Source of the DNA: a phage
Sequence record: PV419677.1
Length of the DNA: 64,000 bases
Direction: 5' to 3' (one strand)
In this document: piece after piece, positions 5,769 to 47,224 of the stretch
How the letters are laid out: every line of letters starts with the position of its first letter
Position numbering within the stretch: position 1 is the stretch's first letter
The notes under the pieces: generated by a model
Databases searched by the model: none
The model's input: the letters and a program-made list of their open reading frames with translations, nothing else
What the model was told of the DNA's origin: nothing
Program-made: the position numbers and the translations under genes

Positions 5769-7318
5769 TGACAACGACTAACACGCTAAAACACATTAGC
5801 GATAAATCCGAATATAAAACATTCGACCCGACGGGAACAGCTTTCCCGTCGACTGTTACCAACGTACAAGAGGCTTTAGGGTCTCTTAATAAAATTGCGT
5901 TAGATGGATATATCCCAGCCTCATCCGAAACGACCGCAGGACTCATCAGGCTAGCCACCACACAAGAAGTTATTGATGGTATTAGTCCAGACTCTGCAGT
6001 TACTCCAGCGACCTTAAAAGCTCGTTTAGACATTCCTACGCAAGCTACAGAAACTTATGTAGGTATTACCCGTTATGCAACCAATGCCGAAGCAATTGCC
6101 GGGACAGTAACCGATGCAGCTATTGTTCCATCTTCATTAAAAGCAACAATTGATAATGTTTTTACTGTTCGTGTTGGTACTGAAAATAACCTGGGTGTTC
6201 TTCGTATTAGTACCGAGGATGCAGCTTTAGCTGGCACAGATGACACAACCGCTATGTCTCCGTTGAAAGTTGCTCTGGCAATTGGCAAAGCAACAGCGGC
6301 GCTTCCAACTTATTCAACTGCCACACAAACTGTTTCTGGTTTAGTACGAATTGCTACAAATGCTGAAGTGCAAGCAGGAACCCTGGGTGACGGTGTAGCA
6401 ATTTCTCCAGCAGGTTTAAATGCTCGTACAGCAACACAAGACCGCGCTGGGATTATTCGTCTTGGTAATCAGTCAGAGATTAATAACAGTGCTGATGGTG
6501 TTGCGGTAACTGGCGCAACTCTTAATGGTCGTGGAGCCACAACCGATAATCGCGGCGTCGTTAGATTAACTACTCAGGCTGGGGTTGCTCCTGGTGGTGA
6601 TGGTGCCGGTGCACTGGCTTGGAATGCTGATGTAATCAACACTCGCGGTGGTCAACGAATTAATGGAAGTCTTTCTTTAGATTATATTTCCACCGGCAAT
6701 TTTGATTCCAATACAGCTCATATGGGCGGTCAATTACTTTCTACACAGCGTTATGCTTCTGAACGGGTTCCAGTTGGAACGGTGATGATGTTCGCAGGTG
6801 ATAGTGCTCCTCCTGGCTGGATTATGTGTCACGGCGGCACCGTTAATGGGGACCAATTCCCCGACTATCGAAATACTGTTGGAACTCGTTTCGGTGGCGA
6901 TTGGACCAACGTCGGTATTCCTGATATGCGTGGTTTGTTTGTTCGTGGTGCTGGTACCGGTGGACATATTCTGAATAACCGCGGTCAAGATGGTTATGGC
7001 AAAGACCGTTTGGGTGTTGGTTGTGATGGTTCATGGGTCGGTGGTGTACAAGCTCAGCAAATGTCATATCATAAACACGCGGGTGGTTGGGGTGAATACC
7101 AACGTAACGAAGCTCCATTTGGTGCATCAGTTTATCAAGGTTATCTGGGTACAAGAAAATATGCAGACTGGGATAACGCTTCATATTTTACTAACGATGG
7201 ATTTGAACTCGGTGGCGGCAGAGATGCTTTAGGTACGTTAAACCGTGAAGGTCTTATTGGTTATGAAACTCGCCCATGGAATATGTCTTTAAACTATATT
7301 ATCAAAATTCATTACTAA
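5768..7318 (+). CDS. gp12: Short tail fibre protein gp12
   Basis: 516 aa; aligns with remembered T4 gp12 (e.g. ...GVVRLTTQAG..., ...QQMSYHKHAGG...). Confidence 0.9.
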   Translation: MTTTNTLKHISDKSEYKTFDPTGTAFPSTVTNVQEALGSLNKIALDGYIPASSETTAGLIRLATTQEVIDGISPDSAVTPATLKARLDIPTQATETYVGITRYATNAEAIAGTVTDAAIVPSSLKATIDNVFTVRVGTENNLGVLRISTEDAALAGTDDTTAMSPLKVALAIGKATAALPTYSTATQTVSGLVRIATNAEVQAGTLGDGVAISPAGLNARTATQDRAGIIRLGNQSEINNSADGVAVTGATLNGRGATTDNRGVVRLTTQAGVAPGGDGAGALAWNADVINTRGGQRINGSLSLDYISTGNFDSNTAHMGGQLLSTQRYASERVPVGTVMMFAGDSAPPGWIMCHGGTVNGDQFPDYRNTVGTRFGGDWTNVGIPDMRGLFVRGAGTGGHILNNRGQDGYGKDRLGVGCDGSWVGGVQAQQMSYHKHAGGWGEYQRNEAPFGASVYQGYLGTRKYADWDNASYFTNDGFELGGGRDALGTLNREGLIGYETRPWNMSLNYIIKIHY

Positions 7319-39803: not shown

Positions 39804-41864
39804 CTATGAAAGGAATTTAGGAGGAATAGCTTCCAAATTAATACAACTAGCAAGAATACCAAGCCCTTGATTGACTTTCTTCGTTACCCCAGAGGATGCA
39901 AACGATGCAAAGTCAACAGATTCTACTGGCTCTTCTGTTTCCTCGCCCTGATAAACGACAAGCTCACCAGTTTCCATCAACACATCACCATCATAGATAA
40001 CTGCATTTTCATCCAGTTGGTCCGTAGTCTGGATATCAGCTTCCAACATTTTGACGTTCGCGTTTCCTTGATACGAAGCATCAGTAATTTTGGTAATCTT
40101 AACTACAGTCCCACGAGGAAGAATAACTTCCTGCTCGGATGGGTTGCCTGACAATTCCCCAGGAACAATTACGTTAATTAAGTCCGCCCCAGAAATTTTC
40201 CAACCAACATGCATCATTACGTGGTCGCGGCGTGCTTCCGGCATATCTGGTAAAACAATTTCGTCATCAGCCTGGAAAGATGTCCCATCACGATAGTCCT
40301 GATGAACTGCAGCCATAGCAACGTTCGCCACCCAGCCACCAAAGATAATCGGTTTAAACGACGTTGATACATAGTTCCTGAAATAAAATAATTTAGATTT
40401 CTTAATTTTATCAAATGTAGGAACGTTTAAATATTGACCACGCCAAAGAGTTGTATTAGGTGGCAACTTATGTCCAATTTCAAAGGCCGAATCCAATTCC
40501 TTAATTGTTTCGACAACTCTGTCTAGATTTAGGAATTCAGCTTCTTCTTCATAATATTTGCCCATCAAATAATTATTAATATCGGCATAGTTTGCTCCAC
40601 AATAATCTGCAATTGCTTCTCGCTGACCATAATGGAAACGGTTGTCAGTATACCCTGCTGTGAAATTAAGAGTATTTTCTGATGCTTCTTCAGCAAAGTC
40701 TTTAACTGCAACACGAATGGCGCTTGTGTATTCTTTTTCCCAGAGCGAGGCTGCATAAGTGGCTGCATCCACGTTAGGAGGAGCATCATTCATTTTTCTT
40801 TCGATAAATGCGGCTTTGCGAAGGTTAAGAATCTCTGCGCATGATTCGGCAAAAATCTGCATCTGCTTCATACTACCAACTGGAGCACGTTTAAGTTCGC
40901 GATGCATACGATTAAAAATTGGGTCAGAGTCTTCAACACGAATTTCTTCTTTCCAAACACCATTTGCTCGCATAGCCGTATCTGCTGCGCGCATACGAGC
41001 CATAGTATTCGTTTCGGAAGGTCGAACAAAAATTTCCAGTTCTTCATAATCATCGATAAGTTCTGCCGTAGCCGGGCGACTAAACTTAGCAGCTTCTGCA
41101 TCGATTTCGTCCCAACCTTCTGGCACGGAATCCATTGGGGCGTACTGGGCTTGTGCAATAGCTCGGCGACTGATTTTAGTTTTCTGGGCAACAGCAGCAT
41201 CGGTCTTTTTGTTTGCTGCGTCAATCAGAATCTCGGCTGCAATTTCTTGTTTGGATACTTGTGCACCATTATCTTTATTGGTGAATACATCACCAACTTT
41301 AGTTTCGACTTTTTTATATTTCTCAGGGACTGGTGGCATACCATCAACCGAAAGTAGGTCAACACCCCTTTTGTACATAATTACATAAGCGTTCTTTTTA
41401 CCAAGGCCAGAAGCATTCGGAAGAACATGATAACGTCCGCTGGTTTTCATTTGAATCAGTCGATTCATAATACGAATAATAGCTTGGTCTTGTCCTTTCA
41501 TCTTTTTGGATGGGAAACGGAACAAGACTACATCAGGTTTGCCTAGTTTAATGCTTTCCCAGACTGTAGTAAAAATCAAGTTAATTGCATCAAGAGGTTT
41601 TTCACCTAAACCACCCTTCAGAGGAACAGCATGACCGTGTGAAGTTCCGGATAACAGGAATACCTCGGCAATTGCATCGCCGCGTTTATATTGTTTAACT
41701 GTTTCTTTGCCCGTGAATTGCATCAAACGAGCCATAAGAGAATTGGTCCCAGGAACACCGAATTGCCAAACCTGTGGGACCTTGTATTTTGGATTCATAT
41801 TAATGACAGGATAACCGAAGGCTTCGATATATTTGTCAAAGAGTTCATTTAATTGTTCAGACAT
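39804..41864 (-). CDS. alt: Alt-like ADP-ribosyltransferase (head-packaged)
   Basis: 686 aa (T4 Alt 682); C-terminal R-S-E ART triad context (LWRGQ, YVSTSF, EQEVILP); late promoter TATAAATA on minus strand at 41890-41897. Confidence 0.8.
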   Translation of the reverse strand: MSEQLNELFDKYIEAFGYPVINMNPKYKVPQVWQFGVPGTNSLMARLMQFTGKETVKQYKRGDAIAEVFLLSGTSHGHAVPLKGGLGEKPLDAINLIFTTVWESIKLGKPDVVLFRFPSKKMKGQDQAIIRIMNRLIQMKTSGRYHVLPNASGLGKKNAYVIMYKRGVDLLSVDGMPPVPEKYKKVETKVGDVFTNKDNGAQVSKQEIAAEILIDAANKKTDAAVAQKTKISRRAIAQAQYAPMDSVPEGWDEIDAEAAKFSRPATAELIDDYEELEIFVRPSETNTMARMRAADTAMRANGVWKEEIRVEDSDPIFNRMHRELKRAPVGSMKQMQIFAESCAEILNLRKAAFIERKMNDAPPNVDAATYAASLWEKEYTSAIRVAVKDFAEEASENTLNFTAGYTDNRFHYGQREAIADYCGANYADINNYLMGKYYEEEAEFLNLDRVVETIKELDSAFEIGHKLPPNTTLWRGQYLNVPTFDKIKKSKLFYFRNYVSTSFKPIIFGGWVANVAMAAVHQDYRDGTSFQADDEIVLPDMPEARRDHVMMHVGWKISGADLINVIVPGELSGNPSEQEVILPRGTVVKITKITDASYQGNANVKMLEADIQTTDQLDENAVIYDGDVLMETGELVVYQGEETEEPVESVDFASFASSGVTKKVNQGLGILASCINLEAIPPKFLS

Positions 41865-43465: not shown

Positions 43466-43747
43466 TTAGTCGTTGGCTCTATTATATGCCACGTCTTCCA
43501 AAAGCAAATCCAACCGCTTATGATAAGTGAACACAAATTTAGTTGCCCCATCTGGTTTCATTTTGGTCATGAAGTGAACATAGATAAATCCTTGCTCAAC
43601 GCATTCACGCCAAACGGGGTTATCTTTAGCCGGATTAATATCAAACGAGTAATTATGATTCACATGACGAATAAACTGGTTAACATGACCGTAATCCATC
43701 GTGGTAGTTGGACCACGGTCAGAAATAGTATGAACGACAAACATCAA
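43466..43747 (-). CDS. Hypothetical protein (30.1-like position)
   Basis: 93-aa ORF. Confidence 0.5.
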   Translation of the reverse strand: MMFVVHTISDRGPTTTMDYGHVNQFIRHVNHNYSFDINPAKDNPVWRECVEQGFIYVHFMTKMKPDGATKFVFTYHKRLDLLLEDVAYNRAND

Positions 43748-44568
43748 TTACCCCCTTGGCCACCGGTCGGTTGATTGTACCAGTATTCAATACCAGTACC
43801 TACACGCTGGCCATATTGATATGGATATCCTGGATTATATCCAGGAGTCCACGGTTGACCAGGCTGCCAGCCTTGCTGCATTTGTTGTTGAAGGCGTCGA
43901 GTTTCACGAAACAGCTCTTCCAGTTTACGGAGTTCATCTGGAGTGAATTCTGGTTTGACCGGTTCATCTTTGTGTTTCAGTTTAAGCTGTCCAGCAACAT
44001 CGTCCCAATTAAAAACTTTGGAAGCTGTTTTAGGAATAGCATCACGTTCGCCGCGGGCCATCCAATAAACCGGAACCTCAAGAATTTCACTCGCATGGTC
44101 GCAATGGTGTGCAAGGTCATCAATATAACAAATGACATTATATTTGTCTTTTGCCTTCTGAAACAAATCCTCTTTAGAGGCTGTATGACCACACATCATC
44201 ACTTCTTTAAACGCTCCAGGGAACAAAGCATTCAGGTTAAATTGACGATTCAAGCGTGCGTCAATGGAATCACCCAGGGCTGTAACAGCCACAAAATCAT
44301 ATTGCTCTTTGAGGTTATTAATAACCCTTAATGCATCCGCATAAGGAGACAAATAGCGAATAAAGTCTGAACAGTTATATTTTTCAATTAACTGCGCGCC
44401 TAACTCTTCATCACAATTGAAAAGTTTACCAGGGGTCACAAATTTTTCATCCTGAATCATCTTAAGGATATGTTCCAGGGGTAAATTATATTTTTGGGCG
44501 AAATAAGGCAAGCCAGACTGCCATGACAAACATACGCCATCAATATCTGTTAAAATAACGGGTTTCAT
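43744..44568 (-). CDS. HAD-superfamily phosphatase-like protein with Gly/Pro/Gln/Tyr-rich C-terminal tail (30.2-like position)
   Basis: Motif I ILTDIDGV, motif II VAVTALG, motif IV YIDD; C-terminus GWQPGQPWTPGYNPGYPYQYG...GGQGGN. Confidence 0.6.
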   Translation of the reverse strand: MKPVILTDIDGVCLSWQSGLPYFAQKYNLPLEHILKMIQDEKFVTPGKLFNCDEELGAQLIEKYNCSDFIRYLSPYADALRVINNLKEQYDFVAVTALGDSIDARLNRQFNLNALFPGAFKEVMMCGHTASKEDLFQKAKDKYNVICYIDDLAHHCDHASEILEVPVYWMARGERDAIPKTASKVFNWDDVAGQLKLKHKDEPVKPEFTPDELRKLEELFRETRRLQQQMQQGWQPGQPWTPGYNPGYPYQYGQRVGTGIEYWYNQPTGGQGGN

Positions 44569-45032
44569 AATGCATCTCTCAATTGGTTAAGTATGTCAAT
44601 AAATTCTTGTTCAGTCAATATTGTATCATGAACAGTAAGGTGGCTCGCCATCGAATGCTTTAAAACTTTGCCTTTTGTAGCTTGTAATGCGTCGCGGAAT
44701 CCTTTGTTTTGGAGCGCTGCTTCAAAATATGCACTTGTATACAGCTCTTTCCATGATGCAGAGTATCTTGAAAAGGGAATTCCAAGCCAGAAAAGCGTCC
44801 CACGGTCCGCAGCTCTTGCATAAGCTCTTCCACTTTGCTGGGCGGCCAATCCGGACATCCCAAATATACGTTTTTGTTGTTCATGATTTCTCACCTTGCA
44901 CCCTTGTAGGAAGCCTTCAAGACCCCCAAACTGGATACCCTCCATAACAAAAGGCCATTTGGCAAAGTTACTTAATGCACATGATGGCCACGGGAAATTG
45001 CTTCTTATTTCTAACTCAGACATTTTTGACAC
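44565..45032 (-). CDS. NADAR (YbiA/DUF1768-like) domain protein, candidate ADP-ribosyl-guanine hydrolase (30.3-like position)
   Basis: ALSNFAKWPFVMEG...F...EGFLQGCK resembles the E. coli YbiA signature FSNFAAWPIKVDG...SEHYFQAQK. Confidence 0.65.
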   Translation of the reverse strand: MSKMSELEIRSNFPWPSCALSNFAKWPFVMEGIQFGGLEGFLQGCKVRNHEQQKRIFGMSGLAAQQSGRAYARAADRGTLFWLGIPFSRYSASWKELYTSAYFEAALQNKGFRDALQATKGKVLKHSMASHLTVHDTILTEQEFIDILNQLRDAL

Positions 45033-46597: not shown

Positions 46598-46628
46598 CAT
46601 TATGCACTGGACCAACCCTGTTGTAAAC
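46598..46628 (-). promoter_or_regulatory. T4 early-type promoter
   Basis: Minus strand GGGGTTTACAA then spacer then GCATAATGATTTCATACTGAG. Confidence 0.55.
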
Positions 46629-46643
46629 CCCTTTATGGAAAAT

Positions 46644-46670
46644 AAAAAAAGGGACTCCGAAGAGTCCCTG
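46644..46670 (-). terminator. Rho-independent terminator after the 58-aa ORF / rIII-proximal noncoding region
   Basis: Minus strand CAGGGACTCTTCGGAGTCCC followed by TTTTTTT. Confidence 0.65.
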
Positions 46671-46856: not shown

Positions 46857-47224
46857 AATGCAGGACTTATTGGCATTGCCTGCGCAAGCCCTCGAAGGGA
46901 ACATTAGGTTTCGGATATTTAACGACAGGATAACCATAAACCTCGTCATCATAGCTCTTATCTGTTGCACACCGTTAGCTTAAAGGTTCCGGGTTCGATT
47001 TCTCGAGGATAAGATATATACTGATGGATATATAGGCCTTGAGGCGTACTCCCGATTGGCCATCACCTCGGGGTAGCATGCACTTGCCGCTATAAAATAA
47101 CATTCAAGAGGTACACCGTAAAACTGCCGAGGTCTTAAAACTATAATGATTCGCAAATCATTAATCAGACAGTTCGACGGCTCCTCGATTTTAGCTCACA
47201 CTAAGGCAGTGAATCTCCAATAAA
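46857..47224 (-). other. ORF-poor structured intergenic region downstream of rIII (candidate noncoding RNA or regulatory element)
   Basis: No ORF of 60 aa or more on either strand over about 370 nt in an otherwise gene-dense region; perfect 8-bp-stem hairpin TAATGATT-cgca-AATCATTA; complementary segments GACCTCGG/CCGAGGT; direct repeat GATATATA x2. Confidence 0.35.

Follow-up and report, generated by a model that had tools for sequence, protein, structure and literature searches.

Introduction

NADAR enzymes reverse the adenosine diphosphate (ADP)-ribosylation of guanine (Ahel laboratory, PMC11543638), and the closest described relative of the gene considered here is gene 30.3 of bacteriophage T4. 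By means of T2 and T4 × RB69 crosses, resistance to DarTG1 was mapped to this gene, which was renamed adfN (Johannesman, Awasthi, Carlson, LeRoux; bioRxiv 2024 PMC11257639; Nat Commun 2025;16:1598 PMC11825919). Here we analyzed a 64,000-nucleotide (nt) stretch of phage DNA (sequence record PV419677.1; the whole stretch is referred to as the window), focusing on a minus-strand gene that, judged by its sequence, is the Gaprivervirus-type ortholog of T4 adfN. An earlier note on this DNA had proposed that the gene encodes a NADAR/YbiA-like enzyme that reverses the guanine modification made by DarT-type toxins.

The T4 protein has been characterized in detail. Deletion of adfN makes T4 and T2 ~10^4-fold (about four logs) sensitive to DarTG1, expression of AdfN rescues RB69 on DarTG1, and purified T4 AdfN strips ADP-ribose from DarT1-modified DNA (PMC11257639 / PMC11825919). 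The E36A and K43A mutants are inactive and no longer give rescue (PMC11257639). AdfN was described as a DNA ADP-ribosylglycohydrolase specific for guanine, both required for resistance to DarTG1 and sufficient to confer it (Johannesman et al., PMC11825919; Toxins 2024). It does not bind DarT1, does not counter the thymidine-modifying DarTG2, and poorly protects phages outside the Tevenvirinae (PMC11257639 / PMC11825919). Independently, the T4 NADAR was shown to hydrolyze guanosine-linked ADP-ribose (G-ADPr) in vitro (PMC11125620). G-ADPr is its substrate in DNA as well as in RNA, removal of the cytidine-linked form (C-ADPr) being listed only for other NADAR families, and the phage NADAR consists of the core domain alone (PMC12945103).

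Orthology with T4 adfN and NADAR homology

The window protein matched PF08010 (Phage_30_3) over profile positions 2–138 of 138 (E = 1.9e-63; 212.8 bits against a cutoff of 36) and aligned without gaps to all 152/152 residues of T4 gp30.3, with 84% identity and 94% positives. Its gene occupies the T-even slot between 30.4 and 30.2. The 2.5 kb around it share 98.5% identity with Escherichia phage vB_EcoM_RZ and 98.3% with phage ECML-359, by classification a member of Straboviridae, Tevenvirinae, Gaprivervirus; the window phage is a Gaprivervirus-like T-even phage.

A database search yielded 157 relatives, all of which carry PF08010 and a few of which also carry PF08719, the Pfam NADAR family; some were named 'YbiA (DUF1768 family)' by one source. 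From these data we compiled an alignment of 64 full-length family members (A1; 35–88% identity to the query), 21 of which matched PF08719 when scanned individually (best E = 1.5e-7). Searching the PDB with the single protein (phmmer) gave nothing at E ≤ 10. With a hidden Markov model (HMM) built from A1 (hmmsearch), E. coli YbiA (2b3w) was the only match (E = 0.013), extending over the motif SNFA...E..Q..K. Direct alignment of A1 to YbiA from the K-12 genome using hhalign reached 93% probability (E = 3.4e-7, 97 columns); in it, LSNFAKWPFVMEG stands opposite FSNFAAWPIKVDG, and LEGFLQGCK opposite SEHYFQAQK. The likeness to YbiA that the earlier note had read from these motifs is therefore real and above chance. 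An AlphaFold2 model computed from A1 (mean predicted local distance difference test, pLDDT, 93.7; predicted template modeling score, pTM, 0.88) shows the YbiA fold, with a helical core and small flanking beta-hairpins. Given the PF08719-matching relatives, the profile matches to YbiA and the confident model, the window protein is a NADAR-fold protein of the NADAR superfamily.

Since E. coli YbiA was first described as hydrolyzing riboflavin-pathway intermediates, we considered whether AdfN could be a YbiA-like housekeeping N-glycosidase that clears such reactive intermediates. The two proteins have the fold and the SNF...E..Q..K motif in common, and YbiA is annotated as an N-glycosidase. Identity to YbiA is only ~20%, however, the last-strand Glu is replaced by His in all 64 members of A1, the genes surrounding adfN are accessory phage genes, none of them a riboflavin gene, and a clear phenotype with respect to DarTG1 is known for the T4 ortholog, so that we give this possibility hardly any credence.

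A distant homolog was found in a jumbo-phage-like contig of 308 kb from ENA with many small unannotated open reading frames (ORFs; contig L004). Its gp30.3-type NADAR gene (positions 6001–6468 of the contig) encodes a protein 36% identical to the window protein, and NUDIX and Thg1-like genes lie within 4 kb. The gp30.3 clade therefore extends beyond T4-like phages. Bacterial gp30.3-type homologs were considered as leads to toxin partners, and P0102 was rejected as such, its surroundings being phage-like, with small ORFs and no toxin.

Reading frame and predicted active site

The gene had previously been given as 155 codons at 44565–45032. An open frame of this length does run from a GTG to the stop codon at 44565–44567 on the minus strand, and its protein sequence is the one quoted at the time (MSKMSELEIRSNFPWPSCALSNFAKWPFVMEGIQFGGLEGFLQGCK...). 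T4, however, has GCA at the position of the GTG (45032), which is thus not conserved, and carries a TAA stop codon four codons 5' of the 30.3 ATG. We therefore rejected the GTG in favor of the conserved ATG at 45023; a 152-amino-acid (aa), 459-nt gene starting at this ATG is also what is annotated in T4 and in ECML-359. Because the ATG is conserved and overlaps the stop of 30.4 by 8 nt as in T4 (30.3 at 128307–128765, 30.4 at 128758–128964), we delimit adfN as listed in Table 1. The open frame itself thus stands as first described, and the start moves inward, giving 152 instead of 155 aa. The three codons left upstream are probably not translated within AdfN, and the layout of the 30.4/adfN overlap suggests translational coupling.

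Table 1 Features of the adfN locus and its surroundings in the window.
Feature	Coordinates	Strand	Remarks
adfN (gene 30.3) coding sequence	44565..45023	minus	152 aa + stop; predicted phage-type NADAR ADP-ribosylglycohydrolase
Three extra codons GTG TCA AAA	45024..45032	minus	included in the earlier note's coordinates; GTG is GCA in T4
8-nt overlap ATGTCTGA, gene 30.4 end / adfN start	45016..45023	minus	from the sequence
ATGA overlap, adfN stop / gene 30.2 start	44565..44568	minus	from ORF coordinates; same 4-nt overlap in T4
Glu36 codon GAA	44916..44918	minus	invariant in 64/64 members; pairs with Glu of YbiA SEHYFQ
Lys43 codon AAG	44895..44897	minus	conserved in at least 90% of 64 members; pairs with Lys of YbiA QAQK
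His123 codon CAT	44655..44657	minus	last beta-strand; invariant in 64/64 members
C-terminal alpha-helix, residues 138–151, intact	44571..44612	minus	high confidence in AlphaFold2 model; gap-free T4 alignment to last residue
ORF 30.3'	44660..44884	minus	74 aa, other frame inside adfN
Gene 30.2	43744..44568	minus	274 aa
Alt-type ADP-ribosyltransferase gene	39804..41864	minus	686 aa; PF03496, E = 1.3e-19
Promoter-like site TTTACA-17 nt-CATAAT	46599..46627	minus	upstream of 30.8; consensus match only
Terminator-like hairpin AGGGACTCTTCGGAGTCCCT, then T7	46650..46669	minus	strong; directly after 30.9
Conserved spacer module (example)	46870..46950
135-nt RNA block	47089 down to 46955	minus	in 380-nt rIII/30.9 spacer

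The predicted catalytic residues, whose loss on alignment would have spoken against the earlier proposal, are retained: Glu36, Lys43 and His123 all stand in the gap-free alignment with T4 (Table 1). Lys43 would be catalytic or contact ADP-ribose. His123 follows strand 120–122 of the model, and the hhalign alignment stops one residue before it, which places it opposite the Glu of YbiA 'LVEH'. A last-strand His is the hallmark of phage (gp30.3-type) NADARs, with Glu at this place in the YbiA family and Asp in DarG1 (PMC11125620, PMC11543638).

The C-terminal helix deserves attention because a frameshift in RB69, the sole DarTG1-sensitive T-even phage tested, removes the last 15 residues of AdfN (PMC11257639). 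This example, together with the disrupted adfN alleles common among database relatives, raises the question of whether the window allele, too, might be an inactive, decaying accessory gene. We hold this to be very improbable: nothing interrupts the frame between the conserved ATG and the conserved stop, all invariant family residues are kept in a confident full-length fold, and the substitutions relative to T4 are mostly conservative, as reflected in the 94% positives.

Proposed function of AdfN

Building upon the experiments with the T4 protein, we consider it very likely that, during infection, this NADAR glycohydrolase, an orphan carried by the phage, clears guanine in the phage DNA of the ADP-ribose placed there by DarT1. 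When the phage infects a DarTG1-carrying cell, DarT1 would ADP-ribosylate guanine in the phage DNA and thereby block replication; AdfN would then hydrolyze the guanine–ribose bond, free ADP-ribose and restore a usable template. As a minimal, single-domain NADAR-fold N-glycosidase, it would act as a phage-carried 'orphan antitoxin'. Its predicted catalytic residues are Glu36 and Lys43, both in the helix that follows the SNF strand, together with His123, which is specific to the phage proteins and belongs to the last strand. By analogy with T4 AdfN, the window protein is expected to be enzymatically active and specific for guanine, to protect against DarTG1 and to prefer T-even (hydroxymethyl-C) DNA.

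The activity foreseen by the earlier note, a NADAR-type enzyme that reverses guanine ADP-ribosylation by DarT, is the published function of the T4 ortholog gp30.3/AdfN; it was already in print in 2024–2025, and the note arrived at the same conclusion independently. Its wider label of an anti-DarTG factor applies to DarTG1, which modifies guanine, and does not extend to DarTG2, which modifies thymidine and is not countered by AdfN.

Several observations weigh against this assignment. The window protein gave no match to PF08719 even at E ≤ 1, where the earlier note had expected a direct match and had named its absence as a reason to abandon the proposal, and scans of NCBIfam and PADLOC also returned no matches. 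The canonical last-strand Glu/Asp is His here, as in all active phage NADARs. The window allele differs from T4 at 24 of 152 residues, and function is known from the T4 protein only. T4 AdfN itself, unexpectedly, fails to neutralize DarT1 in uninfected cells (PMC11257639 / PMC11825919; PMC11125620). Finally, 15 sigma-70-like sites were found between 43000 and 49000 compared to 14.9 expected from shuffles, which leaves early expression unconfirmed. As for PF08719, we did not take the failed search as a refutation, because 21 of the 64 relatives do match this family and because of the hhalign result with YbiA. The missing match reflects the split of these proteins into two Pfam families and not a lack of homology; as Pfam keeps gp30.3 as a separate family, a search with PF08719 cannot reject NADAR membership.

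The 16% divergence from T4 could give the window allele a different range of substrates or contexts, although we think this unlikely. If true, the protein might work on DNA that is unmodified or in cells that are not infected, reverse the ADP-ribosylation of RNA or cytidine, or counter DarT1-like toxins beyond the reach of T4 AdfN, and it would be a natural variant useful for understanding why T4 AdfN works only in T-even infection.

Removal of guanosine-ADPr from RNA in vitro is common to all NADAR families, the T4 protein included (PMC12945103), and the homolog in the jumbo-phage-like contig lies near NUDIX and Thg1 genes. Both points would suit a protein whose main substrate is ADP-ribosylated RNA or a soluble ADP-ribose immune signal, with the countering of DarT1 as a secondary effect. 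We regard this as distinctly improbable, since deletion of adfN alone costs T4 and T2 ~four logs of plating on DarTG1 hosts, the purified T4 enzyme removes the modification from DNA, and the literature consulted reports no soluble substrate for the gp30.3 family.

Genomic context and neighboring genes

On the minus strand, the genes follow the order rIII, 30.9, 30.8, 30.7, 30.6, 30.5, 30.4, 30.3, 30.2, 30.1, 30 (DNA ligase) and alt, which is backed by Pfam matches to Phage_30_8, Phage_T4_Gp30_7, DUF3045 (30.1), DNA_ligase_A_M and ADPrib_exo_Tox. T4 shows the same order and overlaps, and the order also agrees with the annotation of ECML-359. No DarT1 toxin lies beside adfN, whose flanking genes are the orthologs of T4 30.2 and 30.4, and PADLOC defense models gave no match at E ≤ 0.1 to AdfN and six neighboring genes.

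The Alt-type ADP-ribosyltransferase gene (Table 1) lies 2.7 kb downstream of adfN, so that an ADP-ribose 'writer' (Alt) and an 'eraser' (AdfN) are found in one gene block on the same strand. T4-like NADARs have been noted among early genes, co-expressed with ADP-ribosyltransferases (Iyer et al. 2022, PMC9503650), and the position of alt in the window fits this remark. On the basis of this shared strand and co-expression, one could imagine that AdfN reverses or edits the marks set by the phage's own transferases (Alt, or ModA/ModB) and thus tunes host takeover. Alt and Mod enzymes modify arginine in proteins. NADARs, in contrast, act on the N-glycosidic base–ribose bonds of guanine and cytidine (PMC11543638, PMC12945103). 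Furthermore, the literature consulted describes no NADAR that de-ADP-ribosylates proteins, and the linkage to alt spans a whole block of unrelated genes, which makes such a role most unlikely. In T4, genetics argues against each of these roles as the main one, be it on protein marks, on soluble or RNA substrates, or in YbiA-like housekeeping, although any of them may exist as a side activity, and we retain the repair of DarT1-modified DNA as the very probable function of AdfN.

An early promoter was sought by a consensus scan and rejected because the scan performed no better than shuffles. The label 'early gene' for adfN rests on what is known from T4. Upstream, a strong terminator-like hairpin directly after 30.9 and a promoter-like site ahead of 30.8 (Table 1) could delimit a candidate transcription unit feeding 30.8 through adfN.

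The next gene, 30.2, encodes a protein with an N-terminal HAD-phosphatase motif I (ILTDIDGV), for which we found a weak match to mitochondrial 5'(3')-deoxyribonucleotidase (PDB 2jao, E = 0.28), a faint PHROG match to polynucleotide kinase, and no Pfam or NCBIfam family. It is 67% identical to its T4 counterpart overall, with gaps in the C-terminal tail, where the last ~60 residues are rich in Q, G, P, Y and W and diverge strongly from those of T4. A functional coupling between AdfN and the HAD-like gp30.2 was considered and dropped: the gene following the distant homolog in contig L004 is unrelated to gp30.2, so the adfN/30.2 pair is not conserved outside T-even phages.

Inside adfN, a second frame, ORF 30.3' (Table 1), is open as in T4 and matches DUF2883 (PF11097; E = 2.5e-25). 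It is 59% identical to T4 30.3', compared to 84% for the adfN frame over the same DNA, and therefore looks less constrained.

Disrupted adfN alleles occur in many T-even phages (relatives P0004, P0013, P0014, P0015 and P0019). They include N-terminally truncated gene calls of 126, 109 and 91 aa, which start at Met27 or later and have no SNF strand, and fusion products that combine parts of the 30.3 and 30.3' frames (P0014, P0019). By analogy with RB69, the phages concerned are natural candidates for DarTG1 sensitivity.

A candidate structured RNA in the rIII/30.9 spacer

Within the spacer that separates rIII from 30.9 lies a 135-nt block (CGGCAAGTGCATGC...CAACAGATAAGAG; Table 1) that we propose as a candidate new structured phage noncoding RNA, on the basis of covariation, and that is more novel than the finding on adfN. 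Single-copy in the window, it recurs with 84–100% identity in about 400 T4-like phages from at least six host genera (Escherichia, Klebsiella, Enterobacter, Serratia, Salmonella and Yersinia), with sharp edges and with flanks that are unrelated between genera. The block is absent from T4 and many Tequatroviruses, with no covariance-model match in the T4 loci, and an 18-mer search of bacterial genomes gave chance-level matches only. A degenerate pattern scan of viral contigs was discarded, as it added only chance matches in GC-rich coding DNA.

We aligned 17 distinct copies (A3) and predicted their common structure using RNAalifold. The consensus comprises 39 pairs, 13 of them with compensatory double changes, compared to 3.2 ± 1.4 in shuffled alignments (0/500 as high) and 0–3 in slid controls. 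G-U variants favor the minus strand, which is also the gene strand. One hairpin combines a covarying stem with a loop of the GNRA type, which reads GAAA or GUAA in 14 of 17 copies. A weak point of the RNA interpretation is the unremarkable folding energy of the single sequence (z = -0.75). The block had no match in Rfam 15 at the gathering score or at E ≤ 1, contains no tRNA and, by eye, shows no evident similarity to T4 rnaC/rnaD; a full-text literature search for rIII/30.9 returned nothing on it.

Where the block lies with respect to the other conserved modules of the spacer varies from genus to genus, and this suggests that it is a self-contained and possibly mobile module. These other modules, likewise short, are found repeatedly in the rIII/30.9 spacers of different genera, for instance at the window positions given in Table 1 and in the downstream flanks of loci L008 and L011. 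Among them are GGTTATCC..GTCGTTAAATATCCGAAACC and a CCCTTYGAGGG hairpin with CTTGCG behind it; in phages of Klebsiella and Enterobacter, a long GGGAGC...GCTCCC hairpin precedes 30.9. The spacer thus appears to be a mosaic of shuffled elements.

Implications for annotation and host range

All close relatives in the phage database are labeled 'hypothetical protein', and the window gene can now be named adfN (DNA ADP-ribosylglycohydrolase, anti-DarTG1). Biologically, the finding goes no further than Johannesman et al. 2025 and the studies of the Ahel laboratory. In practical terms, an intact adfN predicts DarTG1 resistance of the window phage, and truncated or frame-fused alleles predict sensitivity, so that adfN status bears on host-range prediction and on the choice of therapeutic phages.

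Comparison with known systems

Among the described NADARs, E. coli YbiA (2b3w), the founding member of the NADAR/YbiA fold, is only ~20% identical to the window protein and has Glu in the last strand where AdfN has His. Its gene is chromosomal, beside dinG and rhlE, and YbiA gives no in vivo protection against DarT1 (PMC11125620). The eukaryotic NADAR of Phytophthora nicotianae (PDB 8bau, in complex with ADP-ribose) has 189 aa, is 19% identical and likewise carries a last-strand Glu. DarG1 of the BC4488 family, for example the Geobacter lovleyi NADAR (PDB 8bat), is associated with DarT1, whereas the window gene is an orphan. DarG1 uses a last-strand catalytic Asp instead of His123 and has an N-terminal extension (219 aa in 8bat, compared to the core-only 152 aa of the window AdfN); the T4 protein cannot replace it in uninfected cells (PMC11257639).

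NADAR-Bas32 and NADAR-Bas60, from T5-like phages and Vequintavirinae, respectively, resemble AdfN in being phage-encoded and anti-DarTG1 but belong to other, independently acquired NADAR clades. Unlike T4-type AdfN, they neutralize DarT1 without infection and protect unrelated phages (PMC11257639). The other anti-DarT1 factor of T-even phages, AdfA (gp61.2), targets the same defense, DarTG1, yet is unrelated to AdfN, has no enzymatic domain and binds DarT1 instead of repairing DNA (PMC11257639 / PMC11825919).

By far the closest counterpart is T4 AdfN, from which the window protein differs by 24 substitutions and by its origin in a Gaprivervirus-like phage instead of a Tequatrovirus. The two agree in length (152 aa), genomic slot, gene overlaps, the residues E36, K43 and H123, predicted fold and the intact C-terminal helix.

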